The notes under the pieces were generated by a model, which did not search any database, had not been told where the DNA came from, and was given only the letters and a program-made list of their open reading frames with translations. Below are positions 7,790-59,366 of a stretch of DNA of 64,000 bases, in pieces (positions within the stretch are counted from its first letter, which is position 1; the number at the start of each line of letters is the position of its first letter). Source of the stretch: Psilocybe cubensis (taxonomy: Eukaryota). Position numbers and translations under genes: made by a program. Location: assembly GCA_017499595.2 (NCBI GenBank), contig CM039004.1, forward strand, positions 1,240,001 through 1,304,000. Direction: 5' to 3'.

Positions 7790-9689
7790 TCAAAACACAT
7801 CGCTCATTTCAGATTTGTCAACCTTTTTTCTCGTCATGGCTTTTCTTCGTTTGCCCCGACTTTGGAAAGGGCTGTCGTCTTGATAACGGAGATAGTACGC
7901 CCAGTCAGCAGTACTATCCATCTCCGTCTGCGAATACCCATTACCCAGCCATGCGAACCGGTTGCCGGTGTACTGGATGTCCCAATCTTCATATCGAGGC
8001 TCAGCCATAGCCTCTAGATACTGCAAGGTGCTTCCAGGCCATATTACGGTCACCTTTCCAGTGACACTGTTATTCTTGTACCACGAACGGCAGTCTTGAC
8101 TCCAGACCATCCTTTCCATGAATTTGTTTTTATGTTCGTTAAATTCTCGAACAGCCTCCAGCTTTGGTTGAACATGGTGAATGTTTTCTGTTTGCCAGCG
8201 ATCGATCATCTTCAAAGCATAGTCGATCTGTGCCTCTATTAAGAGATCAAGGGTTAGAAAAATAGAATATTTCACCTTACACGAATCTTACCTAGAGCGA
8301 TGAGCACAGGTCCGTTCGCAACAGGAGTACTGGGTCCCCCGACCATGAAATAGTTGGGGAAACCATGAGTCGCGATCCCCCAATATGATTCCGACTCCTT
8401 TGCCCATATGTCGTTCAGGTCTTTACCTTCGATGCCAATAACGGGAAATTGAGGTCGATTGGAGGTATCAAATCCAGTAGCGCAAATCAACACATCAAGC
8501 GGGTGCTCTACACCGTCGCCACCAATACAACCTGTTTCGGTGATTTTGGAAACTTCTCCAAAGACGACCTCGACTTTATCGGAACTTAGGGCTTCCAGAT
8601 AGCCCGTTCCTGGCGTTATTCTTCTGCACCCTACAGCCCATGTTGGTATGAGAAGCTCCCTTAGTTTTTCATCTCGTAACTTCTCCTTCATCTCCGTTAC
8701 TACAGCTGCAAAGATTCCCTTTTGACTATCGGAGTCGGCATAGAACAAAGGCCAGATGGAGCTAAAAGCTGTCTCCAGTTCTTTCCGGTATTTGAGAAGT
8801 GTCTCTGGGTCTTCAAAAGCACGACGCTCCTCTTCGGTATATATATGTTGTTCGACGTTCATAGGTGTGATCCATGTTGGCCTACGAATGAAATTGATGA
8901 TTTTGTCCACTTGCGGGGCAATGGCTGGTACAACCTGGATGGCAGACGACCTGACGGGGTATGAGTCATTTAAATCTCAATTGAAAAAAAGAAAAGCTTA
9001 CCCATTTCCTATTATCCCGACGCGTTTACCTTCGAGGTCGACAGAGGTATCCCAATGAGCCGTATGAAGCAGAGGACCCTTGAAGTCGTTGATGCCCTCG
9101 ATGTCCGGGAGTTTCCATGTGTTTAAAAGACCGCCAGCGTTGATGATCATGTCACATGAATCCTGAATTATTGTCCCATCTACCAAGTTTTGAACTTCGA
9201 CCTCCCAGCGGCCCTTCTCCACATTCCAGACTGCCTTTTGAACACGATGGCTTAGTTTGCAGTATTTCTCCAAGTCATACTTCTTGGCAATTCCTTTGAA
9301 ATATTCGTAGATTTCTTTCGAGCCAGCGTATACAGATGACCAGTTGGGGTTAGGTTCGAAGCTCCAGGTGTAGGTGTGTGCAGCGACATCGCAGGAACAA
9401 CTAACGTCGGCTTCAGTATATGTGCGCCGCTTAGTATTCTCGGAAAGGAGATAACGTACCCTGGATATTTGTTTTCGTACCACGTTCCACCGATGTCGTC
9501 GTTCTTGTCGTACACGATGAGTTCATAATTTTCGAAGGACCTTTGAAGCTTATACGCCACTAGCAGACCCGAAGCTGCTGCTCCGATGCATATGACTTTC
9601 AAGGGCCTCTCTTCGTGAATCGGTTTACTGAGACGCTCGTGATCGAGATGTGGAGCAGTTGGTACCGGAGGAGCGTTCCCGTTGGGCAT
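7790..9689 (-). CDS. FAD/NADPH-dependent Baeyer-Villiger-type monooxygenase (StcW-like family), copy 1
   Basis: VICIGAAASG Rossmann motif, GGTWYENKYPG/CSCD, FKGPLLHTAHWD (FxGxxxHxxxW fingerprint), GIIGNG/SS, GCRRITPG, ICATGFD; four exons. Confidence 0.92.
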
Positions 9690-12135: not shown

Positions 12136-15100
12136 ATGGCCACCATGCTGGAGACACCCTCGCGCATTTGGCGGCGCATTGAAGCGATTGAAGATGAAGA
12201 CATGCCCTCTCTTCCCTCCCTCCCGCCGTTTGAACACTCTGGTATAATTGAGGAAACTACCAGAGAACCCTCGGACCAACCAGACTCCGATGACCAGTTT
12301 GACGAAGACTTTGAGAGCGAGACATCTCCCCTGCAGTCAACACCCGCATCTACCCAACATACAATAACGTCGGCTTTGCGCGCTCCATCCAGTACATCTA
12401 GTACTGCAAGATTCGCGCACTCGATTGCCTCGAGGTCAAATCGATCCGTAAACAACATGACTGCATCGCGCGGTATGTCAAGTCGACGAAGTCACCATGA
12501 TAGCTTTGATATTCCATCGCTACCGCGAATACAGCCCAACTCGGCACCCACAACCCGTCAAGACGAGTCGGATGGAGGGGAGGAGGAGAGCAAGTCAAGC
12601 GTGCCAGAAGTTTATCTCCCCCCGGAAGGGGACGCGGACGATCATGAGCAAGAATACTCACTCACCGATGCACTCCAATCGATCAGCAGATCTAGTACGC
12701 CTCCAATTTCTGCCCAGGTCGGTCGCGAGAACACACCTAAGAAGAATTATGATTACTCTGTTAGTCTAAAGTCAGAACCAAAGGTAATGCCACTAATTTG
12801 CATATATATTGATACCTAACCTATTTCTAGGCCTCCCCTTTTGAGAAATATCGGAATGTAGCTTTACGCAGAACAAATCCGACCAGTGCTCGTATACGAA
12901 CGCCTTCCCTTTCTAGGACATCATCTTCTCAAACAACTTCACCCGCCAACTCTACTCCACAAAGTAACAGATCTGGTCAATTGCCTCGCTCACAGACTGC
13001 TTCTCCTATTTCAGCAAGAGGCATTCCTTTGCCACGTTCTACAACCGCTTCACCGGCGACACATATACGGTCCCCAGAAGGTGATGAAGACCAGTCTATC
13101 GAAGCACCCAACTTCAGCAACGACACCAATGACAATAGTGCTCGGTCAATGGATATAACAGATGTGCACGTGTCTCCACCTCGAGTAGATGGTGAAGATG
13201 GTCAGACTACTGAGGAATCAGAATCTCAGCAAGAAAGCCATCAGGATCTTGGCACATACACTGAGGGATCTCATGATGGACACGAACCTACTTTTTCATC
13301 TGAAGGAGAACCTACACCACATGCAAACAACAGTGCCACGGCACAAAATAAAAGTGCATTTTCATCCCCCTCACAGTCTGTTGCATTTACACCGACTCCT
13401 GCATTTCCCCGACCGAGGGCAAGGTTCGATCTTCCTCCACCGCCCAGCGACCTTTTGACAACTCCTGCGTCTCGAAACCCTGAAGAGGATGAAGACTATG
13501 AACCGCACGGTGATCTTCTAACACCACATACCAGACGCCGTTCGTTCCTGCTCTCTGTCATCAACTCTACAGCGCGCCCTCGGATGAAAGTCCCAACTCC
13601 ACACCCAAAGAGGTTCGGTTCACCTCTAGCCTCTGCCGAGGAATCTACACCCGGTCCTAGTTCTAGCGCTTCCCCTGGGACAAGTTTGCAATCAGCTTTT
13701 GCGGGGGTTACTCCTCGTCCACGCATGGCAGTAGTTAGACGAATGTCGCATCCCTTGTCGCAGGCGGTTACCGCATCTTCGGGATCGTCAGACGGTGCGC
13801 GCAACCCAGCGTCATGGACTACTCCAGCCCAAGCCTCACCCTACGATGGGGTAGCGGACCGCGCATCGTTCATATCTACAGCGTCATCGCATGACTTGAC
13901 AACCCACCAAAGGGCGAACACATCCTTCGACCCGGCTATGGGTTTCGGATCGGGTGCACCTGGACATGGTGTTGGCAGGTTTAATGCTGGGAAGCTGAAC
14001 ACCTACTTACATGGCTTGAACAGGCGGTTACAAGAGGAGAATGAAATTCTCATTGAGAAGATGCGGAAGATGGAAGAGGAAAAGAAGACCGAGCCGTCGT
14101 CTAGTTCCGCTCCGGGTGACACTAGCAGACGATTGAGTGCTGCTAGCCGTAGAGCGAGCGGTGTTGGGACTTCATTGGCCAATGTACAGGATGTACCGGA
14201 GGAAGGGTGGTTAGAGGAGAAGGCAGAGCTGGAGGATATGGTAGAGGCCTTTAAAATCGAAGTAACGAACTGCATGGCGGAGAAGGAGGAGGTCGAGCAG
14301 GCGCTTGAGAGAGAGAAGGCTGAACGTGAGCGAGATATAGTCAGGTGGAAAGAAAGGATGTCAGAAGTTGAACAGGGTGTTTCGGGTATCGTTCAGGGCT
14401 TGGAGCAGAAAGTTATAGAGGCTGAAGAACGGGTAAAGACCGTGGAGCAAGAGGCTGAGCGGCGTATCAAGGATGTAGAGAAGGCTCTTGCGGAGGCACA
14501 AGGAGAAAGAGATGTCGCCACTGAGCGGGCGTCCAAAGCGGAGAGGGTCCTCGAGAGTGGCAAGGAGCTTGGAGGTGCATTGAAGGAGGCAAATGACCGT
14601 GTTGCTCAAGTCATGGGAGACCTCAGAAATGCTAACGCGCAGATCAAAGAGCTCGAAGATGAAGTCATGCATTCTGATGCTAGGATTGACGAGCTGGAGA
14701 AAGAAGCCAAGGAGGACAAGGAAATCATCTCCGGTCTTGAAACTGAACTGACTTCGACGTCTGACGCGTTAGCCGCCGAACGTGCGAAGAGCAAACAACT
14801 TGAAGACACAATCCGTCGATTGGACGAGGAACTCAGGTCCACCAAGGCATACGTTGATGAACTCGAAGAAGGCGCTGGCGATGCCATGCAAAAGATCGAA
14901 CAGCTCGAGGGAGAACTTGAACTGGCGAAGGAGAACATGAAGGTTATGGCTACTTCAGAAGAGCAAGCTTCGCAGGATGTCAAGTCACTTCAAAACGAGC
15001 TCATCAAAGCACAGGAGACAGCGCGACAGATGGAAGATGCCCTTGAAGATGCAGAGCAGAAGATGATGAAAGATGAAGAAGCCCTGGCCGAGCTTCGTTC

Positions 15101-48200: not shown

Positions 48201-49130
48201 GTTTCCGCGGAATCCGATTCTTTGTTCTTTCCAGGAGTGTCCTCGATGGGTTTAATGTCCTTTCCGCGAGATATGGGGAGGACGTTGAGTTCGTCGTCCA
48301 GTACCAGACAATCAGGACATGATCCAAGAGAAAGGATAAAGCGTTCGTTGAATCTGGCTACCACGGAATCGTGTGATGAAGTTCTGTACCGCGAATGCAC
48401 GTCCTGATATGCCATGAGTTCAGATATTAAGCAATAGGCAACACAACCACGGCTTACCATGGTCATTGTATACAACTGTCTCAACGAAGTCATGGTCTTG
48501 AGCAGCAAAACAACCAAACCACCACCTTCCACCGTTTCAATTGTTCGGGCGAGCAGGTTGGGCGTGATAGCCTCAAAGTCTTGAAGGACACACATGCCGT
48601 ATGTATTTCCGAGAATTTTGTGCGATTCTTTGTAGTACCTGTGCAAGGTGTAGACGAAAGATTGTCCAAAATGGAGGGTTTGTACAAGAGAGCAAACAAT
48701 TGAGCCGGACACAGAGATCAGACAAGTCGACCATGAATTTGGGGTGCTGCAAACAACTCACGTATAACGAATGTCGGTAACGGTAACAAAAATCTCGAAA
48801 GGATCCTGTTCATTCGCCTCACGGATACCTCTTTTCACATCGCGCTTGATTTTAGCTTCTCTCTTTTTGCGGTGACTGGTGAACCCAAGTTCTTTCTTAT
48901 AGCACCATAATACGGATGGTCGAGCAGAAACACGCGCTTGTGAAAGCAGGAAGTGAAGATTTACGATCTAATGAAGGATTTTCAATTTTAGCAGGTAATA
49001 ATACTGTATTGTTATTTGTACAAACCTGGTCTCGTCCTTTGTCACCAACAAGGACAATGAAAGATCTATGGTTCTTCTTAACATTATTGTTGATGAGGAT
49101 AGGAATTCGAGGGTCGAGTTGTTTGCGCAT
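45222..49130 (-). CDS. NAT10: RNA cytidine acetyltransferase (18S rRNA/tRNA ac4C)
   Basis: MRKQLDPRIPILINNNVKKNHRS, VLQDFEAITPNLLARTIETVEGGG, TAARGRGKSAALG, IIDEAAAIPLP, SHYKNQPNDLQ, GARVVRVACHPDY...GYGSRAL and basic C-terminal NLS; equivalent to KRE33. Confidence 0.97.
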
Positions 49131-51701
49131 TCGGAACGTATCCTTGAGACAAAGCCCAAATTATCTATGTCACTGAAAGCCACTGACCTTAGCAAGAAGG
49201 TAAATTTTTGATCGGAATTCCCACGGTCGAATATGGAAGTGGATTAAACTCCGTGTGGCTGTGTTATTGCCAAGGGCATAAACTGAACTCATTTCGTTTG
49301 TTTGAATGACCGTGAATATATAAATACAGTACTCTGCAAGACATAATGATGTGAATAGTTATAAAGATATTAATTAACTTCCAGAAACCAACAAAAATCG
49401 ACTTTCAAACCTCTCACTCAGACACGTAGTACCATGACCATGCCATGACCAATAGGATCAATGAAGAAGGAAAGGCTCGTCAAAAGGGACATAGACACAT
49501 ATCTCTGCCCAAAATTCTCAGTCAGAAACTTTTACAGGAATGGACCTCAAGGCAAAATCGGAGCCATATGGCGAGCCTGGTGCCACTCTTTGCGCCTAAT
49601 GGGACTCAATGTTATACTAGAGGTCTATCAGCCAGCAACGAAGGGCACAGTTATGAATGCCTCCTAAAAGATGTCCGCCAGTATGTCTGTAAGATGGGGA
49701 TCAGTAACATCCATGCAGAAACATAACTCATTGGCGGATCGGGGGGGCAGGCGAGGCAGCGTCAATCATTTTTGCAGGTATCAAAACGCCGGTATGATCA
49801 TAATTGAAGGTTAGTTAGGAATGTATAGAAGTTTTTTTCGGTGACTATATTCCTACTTCTCTCAAGGATGAAAGAAGCGAAGCGCGCCCCTGTGTCAAAG
49901 GCGTGTTAAATGAATTATATCATGTGATCGCGAGTCCTGGCACTTCCTGGCAATGGCACCGCCACCATAATCAGACGGGTCTCACAAATTTGTTTCGTCC
50001 CCCATGTTCTTTTTTTTGGAATCTGTTTATTATCATGCAACAAGCAATCGGAGTGCTAAGGCGCACGGGTGAGTGATGCTTACCTCTCTACGCTGATCTA
50101 TGTACTGTGTATCAGTCTTCGGCAGCGTTTGTATATTTCTCCCAAGTTCAGGTGCACCGTTAAACCCCTTTCTCACATACTTATGTCCATTCTCCTGCAC
50201 CTGGAAATAATTTCGTTCTGAATGTCTCTAGACAACCACTTCCAGTGTTCTGGTATTCATATCATGATGTTGGCGTCGGGTTTGGGCTTTTGACTGGAGG
50301 CTGCGAGATTGGTCAATCCAGTTTATCTGGGACAACTCTGGGAACGATCCGAACGTCAAGGCAAGCTTCCAACTACGTGACTTTGTAGGAATATTCAGCT
50401 CTCTATTATTATCCTTCAACACGCTGAGCTTATCTGAATTCCTTATTTTGCTGAGGATACCGACCGGAGTGGATGGATCAATCGTCATACGTATAGTGAA
50501 ATGTCGCATTTACTGCCGCGGGGAAGGGCGCAGGTTCCTCTACCGTTAGCCTAAACAATAGCATTGATTTTTGGCCCAAATAATGCTTGAAGTTTCCTAA
50601 ACTTGATATTTGTTTACTGCTTATGACACATTCATGGTGGTGCGTCATCTATCCTCTAGCTAAATGACATTAGTGACCCTACATAGTGTCAGACTAGTTG
50701 GAGATATCTTCAGCGGATGATAGCGGACAATACTGAGGCTGACACAATTGTTAAACCGCTGCAATGATTGACCTTTGGCATGCCTAAGTGCGGGTATTTG
50801 TCAAAGGATTCAAAGCCACGACTTGCTTGCAATTTTTCTCGTCCTTCTTAATTTCTACCATCTTCAGTCTCAGTTACTAATCTTTGGGACTTGCAATATC
50901 TATGTGAGTTTGGTTTTTCCAAGTCTCTTATTCTAATTTTCGTTGAATTGATGTTCATATATTTCAATTTTAGGTTGTTGAAGTCGTTATCGACCTTAAA
51001 TTAAGTTTGCACAGTATCCTCGATGCGAGTCTGCCGATGGGCCAACACGTGGATTTATAGTATCACACGAACCTGAGGATTTAGAAGGGCGGTGAAGGTA
51101 CGATACGCTTTTATTTAGCACTGGGATGTCTGCAAAAAGGCGTCAATGTGCTCTGTATGATGCACCTTCCAACTTATGTAATTCTGAGCAAGCCAAAATG
51201 CCGAGAAAAGTGCGGAATTCCGTCTGGGAATCGTTTTAAACGACGAAGATCATGAGTTGCATCTCATCCGCGTTTAGCATTTATTTCCCAACTCGGTTAT
51301 TGTCTTTATGGATCCAACACATGGCAGTCATTTTTCTGCAGAATAGCTGAGTGAAATGTGCTACTTTGTTGGGGGTGTAAAGCATCTCTTTCTTCGCCCT
51401 ACCCGCTACTGAAGCTAATTTCAACTTTATCGCAGTGTTCACGACTTAGGCATCCTAAATATTATTCACATAATAGTGTTATATAACACTATTTTAGGAT
51501 GCAATTGTTTCTTTCTCCACATCATCCTGATGAATGTCCCACTTTGCGGCCCGTATCACCACCAACCGAGACGAATCTATGGTGCGGGAATATGACTTGA
51601 CCGAAAAGATACCTGAGTGGGATTAGCTGTGACATATATGGCTAAAAGAGTAGCACACTCTACGGATAGGCCCCAGAAAGTGTACTCAGGTTTCTTCCGT
51701 T

Positions 51702-54038
<2,337 letters not shown>

Positions 54039-54619
54039 TGGATACAAGAAAACCCGAAAAGTTTTGATCTACGCGTTTCCGCTAGGCTGTAACTTGCACA
54101 TTGATATGACAATAATTAAGATTCAAGCTCTTGCCGCCGCCTTTTCCAACTTCTAGAATGCTAGCGTCAGCCTCTCCTTAAACAACGCCGTGTATGCACC
54201 CTCGTATGTTTTGCGTTAACGTGGTTATTTAGGAGGACATTTCCCCATTTATCATGCGAAAATTCACGCTGAGCATAACCGTGGGTCTCGTGAAATTTAT
54301 TCGAAGTGATGGAGAGCTTTGGTACATGAGATGAAAAAAATGAGAATGCTACATTTTTAACATTCCTGTAAGTTTTCAGTCAATTTTTAGTTCTGTTCGT
54401 TGATTACAACCACGTGGAATCCATGTGCGAGAAGTTGAAGAACTTAGCAGTGGATAGGCGTGGATGCAACTCCCACGAAGCAGACTATCATTAGCAACGG
54501 TGACAAATTCTTCAATTGACCTCACGCTCAATTCCTGCCCCTTTCACCTTTCGAAAGCTGGCCAAAATAAAATCCTTTCAGTAAAGGGACATCAAGGCCC
54601 ACTTGGCAACGGTACTCAT

Positions 54620-56440
54620 CTTTTTCTTACAGCTGACCTTTTCTATATGTGTAGAGTAATGCTTGCGATAACGTGGAAGGAAATCAAGATCCAAATCAAC
54701 CAATGAAAGAAATGTACTTACGAGGGCCGCATACCCGGAGCGAACACCTGTAATTGGATCATCAATGGATGGTCAAGTAAGTAGTAGATGATAAACGAAC
54801 TCGCCGCCGTTGCCCATTCAGCATCGTTAAACCACCTGTGGAGTTTCATTAAGGATATAGCACAAACTCACAAAATAATTCCGGGAAGATGCCCGACCAA
54901 GGAAGATGAGCTGCAGCGAACCGAGATGATAAATTGAACGGTATCCCAAGAAGATCAGAAGAGCAAATAAGAAGAGTTCACGAAAAATAAGGACACGATG
55001 ATGCCATCGTAGACAAGAAAAAATCAGAGCCCGTCACAAGCCCTAGAACCTGAGATCAGACACCGAGAAATGATTTCATAACCAGACTGCAGGCGATCGC
55101 AGACTTATACCCAAGATCAAGAGTTGCCAGAGTTTAAAGCATGGTTCAGAACATGATTTCTTGTTAGCATAGCATTTCCGAAAATTGACACTCACGACCC
55201 ATGCGGCAGGCAAGAAAAACCAAATTCTTGAAGATTTCAATCGCTGAATGAGTAGACATCTCGCCTGAACTGGAATTTGTACACGCATAGAAGCATCGAG
55301 AACAGAAAGGCTCCACATCCGGGTACACTCGTCTTAGGCGCAGAGCGATTTAGCAACATGATTTCCAGTTTGCATACACTCACTTCATCTGGTCAAGGTG
55401 GCTGCATGAAGTGCAAATCACATGCACGACGAACTGAGAAAGGGAAGGTTCACCTCACAGGTTAGTCTTGCATGAAACTGATTCTCAAGAGAAATTCTTG
55501 CGCAGATTTCACTCGTCACTCAACTCTAAATAGAAAACTCGGTCAACTAAGCAAGTACGGTGGAATGATTGACATACAAGATTATGCACTGCTTTGTCAT
55601 GGACATGCACACAAAGTAGCTTTGGCTGAAGAAACTACGCTGATGATTTGTTTGTGCAAGACCGTTCAAGAGAGCGAGACTGGTTCAATGCTGGATAAAC
55701 CCTGACGAACAACTTCGCGCCAACATATCTCAAGAGAACCTTTGCATGATAATGATTAGGCACGTCCTAATGTCGGGTACGACTGTCACTCACCACATGC
55801 TCAACCAGCATAGAAACTCATCTCAAGTCGTTCAGCAAGCACATAACGCCGGCAACACTGAACGAGAAAGGCACACATGCAATGAACTCAACTTGAACTC
55901 AACGTCCCGCTGGCCACGCTGCAATCAATGAAACGCTCTGCCAACGGTCAGCATGAGGTAACAACGAGTCAAGGAAGGGACACACCAAAGCCTAAAGGAA
56001 GGTCCAGCTTAGGATGTTCTAGGTCAGAAACGTTGGCAGGAGTGGGCACTCAGAAGGCATGGACATCTCAACGGAATATAACCCGGTACGGATAGACGGG
56101 CCGGGTGCCACTCAGCGCGCTTAACGGAAGCTCTGGATTACGATCAGCGAACAGCAGGAGAAGTGGTGGCAGAGCACGCACCACGCACAAACACGCAGTC
56201 AGAGGGCCAGCTGCAAGTCAGTGGGATCTACACAGGTGAAACTTGGTGAAAGCAACTCATCGCGGGCAGTGGTTGGTGGGGTTGAGCGCGCTCAGCTCTG
56301 CTAGAAGTTCCACAGCGGTCTGAACCTGTAAAATCGTCAGTCACTCAACGTAGAAGCAGATCTCATACCTGTTGAGCCAATTAGTAGAAGAGCGAGAAGG
56401 CGAAAGTAGTGGTGGCGGAGAGAGAGGATCGATGAGGGGC
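54620..56440 (-). ncRNA. Candidate multi-exon spliced long non-coding (or micropeptide) transcript
   Basis: TATATAA at 56463-56469 and CT-rich leader. Six canonical-looking introns with branch sites: 56326-56368, 56133-56181, 55938-55985, 55740-55793, 55526-55577, 55333-55383. Further donors at 55195, 54871 and 54721. No long AUG-initiated ORF across the spliced exons. Ends are approximate. Confidence 0.6.
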
Positions 56441-56462
56441 TGTGGTCAGTGAAAGGGCATGG

Positions 56463-56483
56463 TTATATAGATCAGATCACGTG
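56463..56483 (-). promoter_or_regulatory. TATA box with adjacent CACGTG E-box upstream of the candidate spliced ncRNA
   Basis: Minus-strand TATATAA (56463-56469), palindromic CACGTG (56478-56483), followed by a pyrimidine-rich initiator region. Confidence 0.45.
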
Positions 56484-56756
56484 GTCGCGAGTGCCCATCC
56501 TCATTGCCACTCGGTGGCAGTATCACCGTGGCCAGTCCTTTCAAAAAGGATAGAAAGGGCAACAGGCCATGGCCGCCCATCAGTGACAATGCGTTTATTT
56601 GGGACACGAGGTAGACTTGACCCAATAACTCCGGAAGGCGATGAAAGCAAGCATCAGAAACAGACTGGGGGCACATTCAGTTTTGAAAGTAGTGGGATTC
56701 GGATCGTCATAAAAGTTCATTACTACGCATAAATGCAACATTGTCCATTTTGCAGC

Positions 56757-59366
56757 TCATTCAAAGGGCATACTCTCAACGGCTTCAGAGAGAGACTCCC
56801 AATTATTCGCAACGTTTTCTGCATATTCGTGTTCTTCATGGGCAAATTCTTTTACGGCTTGCGTCAAAAGAGCATTTTCCCGATTGTGAAGCACAACGCG
56901 CAGTTCATGCCACATGCTACAAAAAGTAACACTCATTAATAAAGAGATAACGTCAACAGGAGGTAACCGCACCATGCTCGAATAAAAACACGGCGACTGA
57001 GCTGTGCAGCAATCGTGGCTTGGTCCTTTTCGATCATGGCTGTCAGCTTCTCCGCTTCTTCTTGCCAGTTTTCTTTTTGTGCTGCTCGAATACCGTCAAG
57101 CTTTACGGAGGTAGTTTCAATCCGTTTTTTGAGACGTTCTACTTGATCCAGCGAAAGTCTATCGTGACGAATGAATAAATCTCGGGTGGCAAGATAGAGA
57201 TCTCTCTGAGCCTGCACAAAGATAAGTCTCTATATTGCAAGGAAGTTCCTAACCAATTTACCTTGAGCGACTCCAATGTGGTGTCCTGAAGGCTTCGCGA
57301 CTGGAGGATAGATAAGACCATGGATATACTCAATTGAAGATGGGTTACTTACTCGCAATTCCGAAATTTCTGAATGGCGTTGTGTATGTGCAGCTAATTG
57401 GCTCAAGCCAGAGCGCACGCCATTCGACAATTCACAATCATCCCCTCGCCAACACGTTTCGTTGACTTCGACGACAACTCGAAGTGTGTTTGTTAATCTG
57501 GCAAGGTCCCCCTGATTATCCGAAGAAAGGACATTGGGATTGGTATTGAAGCCCAAGAATGATTGTGAGAGGGAAGCGGTCATCGATCGAGGGGAGCCAG
57601 GAGGAAGAGATGAAGATGTGGAGGAGGGAGAAAGTTCAGGCAAAGTGAGGTGAGTCCGGATAAAGGCTCGACGCAGGGCGGGTGTTCGTACCGCAGCTGC
57701 TTCGCGTCGTTTGATTATACGCTCAGCAAGAATGCAAATTCTCTGCCACTGTTCGATTAGAGGACTAATCTTTCCTCGTACAACACTGTTAATAAAGCTT
57801 TGAGTTATAGAAAGGGAGGGTATGTTGTCAAACATCATACGCAAGTTTGTCTTCCAAATCACTGGGAATTGTCATCTCTTCAATCCGGTCTACTCGTCGG
57901 GATGCTGACTCTTCTTCCAAAGATATTGCTGACTGCTTGCGCCATGTTTCAAAAGAAGGTTCACTTAAAAACACTGCTAATACTCCATCCTCTTTAATGA
58001 TGGGGTGATTACTAGGCGTCAATGAATGTAAGTTTCGTCCCAAGATATCTTGGAAAGTATTCTTACACAACAAAGTTGAGGGCTCTGGTTAAGCCACGCC
58101 TAACACATTAGAGTGAGTAACAGAGAAACACGTCGTAAACGATCTAAATGTCGTATATCTTACCGTCTTTGTTCCAAAAACTGTTCATCGGCTACAATAG
58201 GTTCAGTCAATAGCAAGGATATCACGGCCACGACTGCGCTCACCTCCAACTCTTTTCGGGGGCAATGCTGGAAAGAGGCGGAAGGGATATCGACGAACGA
58301 GCACATCCCACAAGAACGTAAACTCGGAATATCGACGAGCGACAGCAGTTTGCCTTCGCTACGCAAGGTTTAGACATAAATAACAGATGTAATTTAGAAA
58401 ACCTTACGTCTGATTGGATTTCATACACGGTATATCTATTCAAGATGAACCCTTGCTGGCCCAGAATAGTGATCTTGATGTTCTCTTCCTTTCTCCACCA
58501 TTCACTAGGTAGCCCAGTACCAGCCAATCCAGAAGGTTGCCCAGTAGGCAGTCCATCAATGGCGCCACCAAAAGAGGTGTTACCAGTATTGGCAGGGAAT
58601 CGGGGGTTTGAGTTCCACGGATCGTCGGAAGAGTAAGCTGGAAGAGTGGCACGTATAGTCTGATTAGTATTTCTCCGGGGTATAGATGCTGGCGATGTTA
58701 TGGTGGATAAAGCTTGGAGGTCGAGAGTCGGCTCTGGAAGGGTATTCTGGGACGATAGAGCAGCAACTTGCTCAATGCTAACGTCTACGAAACCTCTGAG
58801 GACATAAAAGGGCTGATGCGAACGTGGTAGCGTACCTTTCCCTGATTGTGCTAGCGCAACCAACGCTAACGCGACAAAGAATTCGAGCCTCGACACTCTA
58901 GGACGTGAACTGACAAGGTTGACGATCTATAGAAACAGTAAACATGGGTGTTGAGAATGCAGTTGACTGGCAAAACTCACCCGGTCGATCGTGCTAGCTG
59001 GCAACGATGACGTACTCAGAACCCGGGATAAAGCATTGACGGAGGTTTCTCCTGTGTTGGCAGGGTCGACAGAAGCATAAGCGCGATGGTATATAGATGG
59101 TACAGTTGCGTCGGCTGTATAGTTTATGAATGAGTATTGGGCCCGGAAACGCTCGGTGCAATAGGCTATTCACCTATGACTGCATTAAATACAGAAGATG
59201 GCGCTTGTGGTATCGGTGTTGGGCTAGGGCTTGGTGCGGCACTCCATGGGTCAAGTCCGTCGTCATAAACAGAACTTGAGAGAGGGTTCTCATCGACAAA
59301 GCTGCCCCCAAACCCATTGGAGGTGCTTCCTGTATATCGTTGGGCAGGCCGTGGAGCGTTAAACAT
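56757..59366 (-). CDS. MVP1: Sorting nexin Mvp1/SNX8 (PX-BAR)
   Basis: PX domain (GFILNRYTVY...RRYSEFTFLWDVLVRRYPFRLFPALPPKRV...FLEQRR/RGLTRALNFVV/NHPIIKED) followed by BAR helices; ends ...VESMPFE*. Confidence 0.88.

Follow-up and report, generated by a model that had tools for sequence, protein, structure and literature searches.

Can a stretch of DNA that encodes no recognizable protein carry an intact array of introns, and, if so, what kind of gene is it? The question is raised by a locus of Psilocybe cubensis in a 64,000-nucleotide (nt) stretch of contig CM039004.1 (assembly GCA_017499595.2, positions 1,240,001 to 1,304,000 of the forward strand; referred to here as the window). The interval between the genes for a GMC oxidoreductase and the sorting nexin MVP1 contains an element with several introns, described here in the orientation of MVP1 (minus strand). 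The original prediction placed it in a gap of ~2.7 kb; the gap measures 2.72 kb between the stop codons at 54038 and 56757. Judging from its sequence, we give an even chance to the reading that the element is a real, independent, spliced long noncoding RNA (lncRNA) gene, neither a tail of MVP1 nor a dead protein-coding gene. For any particular function of the RNA, our confidence is much lower.

On the minus strand, the element opens with the expected TATA box and pyrimidine leader, a CT-rich stretch, and all six expected introns of 43 to 54 nt are present, with the donors, branch sites, and AG acceptors described for them and with exons 2 to 7 of the lengths reported. Exon and intron together recur with a period of ~195 nt. 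Transcription likely starts at 56433, a position chosen from an invariant CAT and the CT-rich leader in the alignment described below. The putative unit is laid out as follows.

56452 to 56515, minus strand: conserved promoter, with AGTGGCA at 56511-56505, CGCGACCACGTGA at 56489-56477, and TATATAA at 56469-56463
56369 to 56433, minus strand: inferred start and CT-rich exon 1, with the A of the invariant CAT at 56433, 36 nt past the TATA box
56326 to 56368, minus strand: intron 1, 43 nt; GTATGA donor, CTGAC branch, CAG acceptor
56182 to 56325, minus strand: exon 2, 144 nt; contains the first AUG (10-codon open reading frame [ORF]) and an ATGAGTT...CTGAC...CAG element at 56261-56211
56133 to 56181, minus strand: intron 2, 49 nt; GTGCGT donor, CTGAT branch, CAG acceptor
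55986 to 56132, minus strand: exon 3, 147 nt; homologous to 49607-49515 of a paralogue
55938 to 55985, minus strand: intron 3, 48 nt; GTGTGT donor, CTGAC branch, CAG acceptor
55794 to 55937, minus strand: exon 4, 144 nt
55740 to 55793, minus strand: intron 4, 54 nt; GTGAGT donor, CTAAT branch, AAG acceptor
55578 to 55739, minus strand: exon 5, 162 nt
55526 to 55577, minus strand: intron 5, 52 nt; GTATGT donor, TTGAC branch, TAG acceptor
55384 to 55525, minus strand: exon 6, 142 nt
55333 to 55383, minus strand: intron 6, 51 nt; GTGAGT donor, CTAAA branch, AAG acceptor
55196 to 55332, minus strand: exon 7, 137 nt
55104 to 55195, minus strand: probable intron 7, 92 nt; GTGAGT donor at 55195, TTGAT, AAG; acceptor at 55104 likeliest but uncertain
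54239 to 55103, minus strand: possible 3' part of the transcript, with weaker, irregular intron candidates

The intron array is clearly nonrandom. Introns 1 to 6 all end in AG and have a branch motif 10 to 17 nt before the acceptor. The GTRNGT-like donor and AG acceptor of U2-type introns are found in all six, and the seventh donor is of the same kind; the branch motifs are CTRAY-like, and the lengths are typical of the genome (43 to 54 nt, versus 49 to 69 nt for 13 introns of the two neighboring genes that were confirmed by RNA contigs). Two sequencing runs, X1 and X2, were treated as RNA, since their contigs skip GT..AG introns in both neighbors. Within 55150-56450, a loose intron pattern matched 7 minus-strand sites and no plus-strand site, and in 2,000 dinucleotide shuffles, which gave a mean of 1.72 sites, 7 was never reached. 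The same pattern fits 4 of the 13 neighboring introns versus every intron of the element; by this measure, splice signals in the element surpass what is typical of real introns here. The exons are uniform in length (coefficient of variation, 0.053; P = 2.5e-6 for random partition), and none of the 12 internal exons of the neighbors confirmed by RNA, counted from contig joints, falls within 137 to 162 nt.

The exon-plus-intron units showed no mutual similarity by BLAST, and the mean pairwise z score was 0.97; the exception was the pair of units 6 and 7 (z = 4.5), whose introns have a 28-nt block in common (22 of 28 positions identical). Tandem Repeats Finder reported no tandem repeats in the unit, and no near-identical intron copies, of the sort left by introner-like elements, were found elsewhere in the window, the block in introns 6 and 7 being the only sharing observed. 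The ~195-nt period probably derives from internal tandem duplications that have left a trace only in units 6 and 7; any such duplications must be old, since most pairs of units retain no similarity.

The unit appears to have its own promoter. Relatives of the locus were found with the 78-residue MVP1 exon adjoining the element, which identified 29 loci on metagenome contigs (given L numbers here; ~222 kb in all). Their MVP1 exons are 65 to 96% identical to that of the window in protein and ~66 to 75% in DNA, a DNA identity low enough that the loci must come from other genera or families. The only block of the interval that aligned was 41 nt long (56492-56452), 85% identical to L003 2762-2802 (E = 3e-8). 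It comprises, in order, CGCG-NN-CACGTGA, ~9 nt, and TATATAA; we take CACGTGA to be an E-box of the type bound by basic helix-loop-helix (bHLH) factors. CGCG-NN-CACGTGA with a TATA box is also present in L010, L016, and L020, and L008 has a one-base variant, CATGTG. In every locus that carries the motif, its distance from the MVP1 exon match is 500 to 640 nt and its orientation is that of MVP1. The exact motif CGCGNNCACGTGA, with 11 specified bases, occurs once in the window and once each in L003, L010, L016, and L020, and the remaining 25 of the 29 loci lack it. At least 650 nt follow the match in 20 loci, among which 4 carry the exact motif and L008 carries the variant; the variant motif is probably present in L013 too, given its 99.8% identity with L008 across the 519 nt that they share. 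The motif-bearing loci represent three lineages besides that of the window. All six sequences of an alignment share an invariant CAT ~30 to 36 nt past the TATA box, with a CT-rich stretch behind it; in the window, L003, and L016, AGTGGCA precedes the E-box by 25 to 50 nt. These comparisons support a promoter that belongs to the unit and has been kept at a fixed place after MVP1 in several agaricomycete-like lineages.

Past the unit, the first gene on its strand in L016 and L008 is the ribosome-biogenesis gene NAT10/KRE33, which puts the unit between MVP1 and NAT10. From this gene order, we take the ancestral place of the unit to be between those two genes, on the same strand as both. In the window, the putative unit lies on the MVP1 strand, with its inferred start ~320 nt past the MVP1 stop codon, and is convergent with the 3' end of the GMC oxidoreductase gene; that gene and ~1.7 kb more now sit between MVP1 with the putative unit and NAT10. 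The surrounding features are these.

Stop codon at 54038, plus strand: GMC oxidoreductase (Pfam GMC_oxred_N and GMC_oxred_C)
Stop codon at 56759-56757, minus strand: MVP1, a sorting nexin of the Snx8/Mvp1 type (Snx8_BAR_dom, E = 2e-15)
Start codon at 49128, minus strand: NAT10 (NAT10/KRE33; TmcA_N)
49450 to 49935, minus strand: copy B, a paralogue of the unit that has decayed and lies ~800 nt upstream of the start codon of NAT10

In the large MVP1 exon, one X1 contig (depth 48) omits 180 nt with CT..AC ends at 57510-57691, which may be an alternative intron inside the coding sequence.

Copy B provides a control for the intact unit, copy A. Its promoter, CGCGATCACATGA followed by ATATAAT (49935-49905), is weaker than that of copy A. 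Alignment of 49607-49515 with exon 3 (56133-56017) gave a local score of 54, compared with 27.8 ± 3.4 for shuffles and a maximum of 39 in 200 of them, and in a gapped alignment the similarity of the two copies runs from the promoter to intron 3. These homologous blocks are collinear, from which it follows that the unit was duplicated in this genome and that introns 2 and 3 are older than the duplication. Copy B contains no intron that fits the pattern: its relic of intron 2 has kept the branch motif and lost the donor, and that of intron 3 has kept a GTGTCT start and TTGAT and lost the AG. Splice signals that are consensus in copy A and decayed in copy B suggest, from this one pair, that splicing of copy A is under selection. 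Both paralogues also contain an intron-shaped element, ATGAGTT...ACTGAC/ACTGAT...CAG, of 51 and 56 nt (56261-56211 and 49731-49676, minus strand), in which position 1 of the donor is A and not G; it is among the best-conserved blocks between the copies.

Two DNA runs of the same organism, X3 and X4, gave a view of variation within the species. Among the variants listed for the multi-intron part, three lie in intron 6 and one each in intron 1, at the acceptor edge of intron 2, and in the CT-rich leader of exon 1; exons 2 to 7 have none. The variant at the intron 2 acceptor (56133) is a 7-nt insertion in one X4 haplotype that replaces the AG, with alternative AGs 5 to 7 nt away; it would frameshift a coding exon. 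The X3 alleles differ at 7 positions in 180 nt (55069-55248) and at 8 in 369 nt (54500-54868) in the 3' part of the interval, and the multi-intron part is far less polymorphic, with 0 to 2 differences per 550 to 820 nt.

The body of the unit differs between lineages. Candidate introns number two or three in L003 and one in L016; the pattern of many introns and ~140-nt exons, not being seen in either, is probably lineage specific. L003 and L016 have, ~1,020 nt past the TATA box, a G-rich hairpin (GGGGGGCG...CCCC) followed immediately by a GGTGAGT donor and a complete short intron, an element that was not found in the window. Its positions are as follows.

L003, 3800 to 3876: G-rich hairpin and donor
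L016, 2251 to 2331: G-rich hairpin and donor
L008, ~9028 to 9100: G-rich hairpin and donor (base before the donor differs)

In L016, 1350-1600 and 1963-2030 hold three copies of a small hairpin with the loop GGATGnTTGTATC, whose stems differ compensatorily (CCGC/GCGG versus CACC/GGTG), and one perfect hairpin of 15 bp, for which Rfam gave a chance-level microRNA match. Downstream of the conserved promoter in L020 (11400-13400), there is an irregular array of GGTTTGCGATTCTC-type repeats more than 2 kb long, built from the motifs GGTTTGCGATTCTCACAAGG and TTCAACAT..CCAG..CTTGTT at a spacing of ~70 to 140 nt, which Tandem Repeats Finder missed. Such repeats in related loci suggest that the locus tends to grow by internal duplication. 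L002 was rejected as a carrier of the unit, since its CACGTGA upstream of NAT10 adjoins an unrelated membrane-protein gene. That gene, at 13037-13915 between MVP1 and NAT10, is small and has several exons; it encodes a hydrophobic protein whose N-terminal motif is putatively EXPERA/TMEM97-like. No trace of it was found in the window.

The two RNA-like runs offer little signal over the array. X1 covers ~55538-56240 (exons 5 to 2, ~700 nt) at a depth of ~4, compared with 143 to 290 for MVP1, and X2 does not cover it; the X1 bin depths over the element fit spliced and unspliced readings equally. Further 3', 54239-54654 is covered at a depth of 31 in X1, and 54310-54464 at a depth of 15 in X2. Taken as minus-strand sequence, 54239-54654 would follow a candidate acceptor (54662) and include AATAAA at ~54296, features with which it may be the last exon of the unit. 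We found neither an ORF nor an Rfam match nor a significant fold in this segment. Its coverage exceeds that of the adjacent GMC oxidoreductase mRNA (16.8 in X1 and 11.3 in X2).

Several results weigh against a spliced lncRNA gene. The coverage of exons 2 to 5 comes from one of the two RNA-like runs and at that low depth, depth is zero in both runs over 54670-55537, and among the contigs listed there is no spliced read or contig at any of the 7 junctions. The body of the element aligned to none of the 29 loci, and its periodic layout of many introns is absent from the related loci read (L003 and L016). Of the 20 loci in which the match is followed by at least 650 nt, 14 lack the promoter motif and have other downstream neighbors, and the block itself could be a DNA regulatory element for the neighboring genes and not the promoter of this RNA. 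Exons folded no better than shuffled sequences (z scores of -0.8 to +0.6), the unit has no strong inverted repeats, and no enriched exon k-mer survived correction for multiple testing; with no significant fold and no enriched motif, nothing points to an RNA that acts in trans.

The strongest alternative is a conserved DNA module, an enhancer or upstream activating sequence or the former distal promoter of NAT10, in which the RNA would be noise and the introns a neutral leftover of tandem duplication. We regard this as possible, if on balance unlikely. Conservation confined to the promoter block and the very low abundance of the RNA agree with it, as do the lineage-specific repeats in the body of related loci, and the 28-nt block of introns 6 and 7 and the resemblance of units 6 and 7 fit tandem duplication. 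However, six or seven introns better than typical should decay if they are neutral, and the paralogue shows that this very sequence does undergo such decay. Most pairs of units are dissimilar, so that the duplications would be old, yet the splice signals are still intact; and the better promoter was kept by the copy that is detached from NAT10.

A decayed protein-coding gene, for example one for a repeat protein in which each exon encoded a repeat of ~48 residues, is improbable. The lengths of exons 2 to 5 are multiples of three, and uniform exon size is typical of genes with one repeat per exon. However, exons 2 to 6 have stop codons in all three frames, and the 18 frames of exons 2 to 7 hold 38 stops, about the number expected of random sequence, so no frame has few stops. 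With the six predicted introns removed, the longest ORFs are at most 73 amino acids and look random; a permissive search for spliced ORFs, allowing any good donor with any plausible acceptor, gave 112 amino acids, compared with 117 on the opposite strand and 316 for the MVP1 control. Pfam searches with 20 stop-free fragments from both strands returned no match better than E = 0.16, and a protein search of 5.8 billion clusters yielded no candidate homologue, among proteins of 23 to 76 residues, for an ORF of 43 amino acids (55638-55766). The units are dissimilar to one another, and intact consensus splice sites would be unexpected in so old a wreck. No protein relic is detectable, since the ORF, Pfam, and protein-collection searches and the comparison of units all found none, and the prediction that the element is not a decayed gene holds in the tests that were run. 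Without a credible ORF or protein homology, the element has the coding profile of an intergenic lncRNA.

Of the original suggestion of a functional spliced lncRNA or micropeptide gene, the noncoding character and the promoter are supported by these analyses and the micropeptide is not. A micropeptide gene whose mRNA is a target of nonsense-mediated decay because of its downstream junctions is quite improbable. The first AUG of the spliced model opens an ORF of 10 codons, in keeping with the prediction that no long AUG-initiated ORF would be found, and five or six junctions follow it; the low steady-state level of the RNA would suit such a transcript. However, inspection by eye found no small ORF that the window unit has in common with L003, L016, or L020, and longer ORFs of the spliced model look random.

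A precursor of a known small or structured RNA (a small nucleolar RNA [snoRNA] host, telomerase RNA, or an RNA resembling small nuclear RNAs with an end made by spliceosomal cleavage) is very improbable. A TATA-type promoter with a fast-evolving body of ~1 kb or more, the G-rich hairpin and 5' splice site of L003 and L016, and the ATGAGTT...CTGAY...YAG element in both window copies would suit such a precursor. Rfam, however, gave nothing at the gathering threshold over the whole window, and only chance-level matches at E values up to 10 over 53500-57500 and up to 1 in L003, L016, L008, and L020, in line with the earlier statement that the element was not recognized as any known fungal noncoding RNA. 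Agaricomycetes have TTAGGG telomere repeats, which we assumed in looking for a telomerase RNA template; no CCCTAA-type word of at least 7 nt was present in the window unit, L016, or L008, and those of 7 nt in L003 and L020 sit far from the 5' part of the unit. A snoRNA host gene was rejected on the lack of an Rfam match up to an E value of 10, on the introns, which at 43 to 54 nt are too short, and on the unstructured exons. Also rejected were box C/D or H/ACA exons: exon 2 has, by eye, a C-box-like GCGATGA and CTGA boxes but lacks a terminal stem, and neither folding nor Rfam lends support. A guide RNA for 18S acetylation by NAT10 was rejected as well, since antisense matches to the 19-nt stretch tested at the 3' end of 18S did not exceed 8 nt.

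Least credible is read-through or a long 3' untranslated isoform of MVP1, which has in its favor the shared strand and a start close behind the MVP1 stop codon: the MVP1 contigs end at 56678 in both X1 and X2, 79 nt past the stop and 245 nt before the inferred start, depth is zero in both runs over 56406-56622, so that no assembled read-through is seen, and a conserved TATA promoter lies in between.

If the element is an independent spliced lncRNA gene, it would be an RNA polymerase II (Pol II) unit transcribed from near 56433 under control of the E-box, and selection would act on regulated transcription and efficient splicing and not on the RNA sequence. In basidiomycetes, transcript accumulation is reported to depend on introns (PMC3744415, PMC4935854), so strong introns could allow an RNA without an ORF to persist. 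The RNA, or its transcription, would act in cis on neighboring genes: ancestrally on NAT10, downstream in tandem, and at present on the convergent 3' end of the GMC oxidoreductase gene. After the duplication, copy A would have kept the promoter and six or seven consensus introns, and copy B, beside NAT10, would have decayed. We can propose, as a doubtful extension, that the array is itself functional, repeated splicing with a nucleosome-scale period letting the bHLH-controlled promoter act on its neighbors and the introns having long been kept in copy A as they decayed in copy B; this might occur through loading of the spliceosome or the exon junction complex or through chromatin marking coupled to splicing. 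In a bolder version, the ATGAGT...CTGAY...YAG element could be a splice site used for the first step only, which would release a small RNA of ~130 nt.

Should the unit prove real and spliced, it would be a compact system for asking why basidiomycete transcripts need introns and whether selection acts on splicing itself in a noncoding RNA; should it prove not to be spliced, it would serve as a warning that perfect-looking intron arrays can persist unused.

We found no report of an lncRNA beside MVP1 or NAT10 in a literature search that was not aimed at either gene by name. Among known systems, SRG1-SER3 of budding yeast is an upstream tandem lncRNA that interferes by its transcription with the next gene. 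The fission yeast nc-tgp1 is likewise reported to repress the next gene by transcriptional interference from an upstream tandem position (PMC4255232), and the ancestral unit would resemble it as a tandem noncoding transcript with a nutrient-type E-box promoter directly upstream of NAT10. Unlike our putatively spliced unit, nc-tgp1 and SRG1 are not known to be spliced; the intact copy here is convergent with another gene, and any interference by it is putative.

Host genes of the GAS5/UHG type, as the unit would, give spliced Pol II transcripts with many exons and few ORFs, whose exons are not the product (PMC6789762, PMC7154078); unlike theirs, the introns here, at 43 to 54 nt, leave no room for a snoRNA, and the Rfam searches detected none. 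Fungal telomerase RNA is a long, fast-evolving Pol II transcript found by synteny, as the unit would be, with a 3' end made by the spliceosome (PMC4299874, PMC9564094). It is the related loci and not the window that resemble it in having a splice-site element after a hairpin; the unit differs from telomerase RNA in having many complete introns and no telomere-repeat template.

The closest likeness is to the syntenic lncRNAs of animals and yeasts, in which position and promoter are conserved, exons are not, and there is no ORF (PMC12694859, PMC8677757). The unit differs from them in its six or seven short, hyperconsensus introns with a ~195-nt period and in its barely documented expression. The best reading of its class is thus a positionally conserved, fast-evolving lncRNA with an unusually regular and clean intron array and a paralogue as a control. 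Very few fungal lncRNAs outside the yeasts are known to have evolutionary support, and three features recommend this locus: a promoter at a fixed position across lineages, a decayed paralogue for comparison, and regular introns in a putative noncoding RNA.

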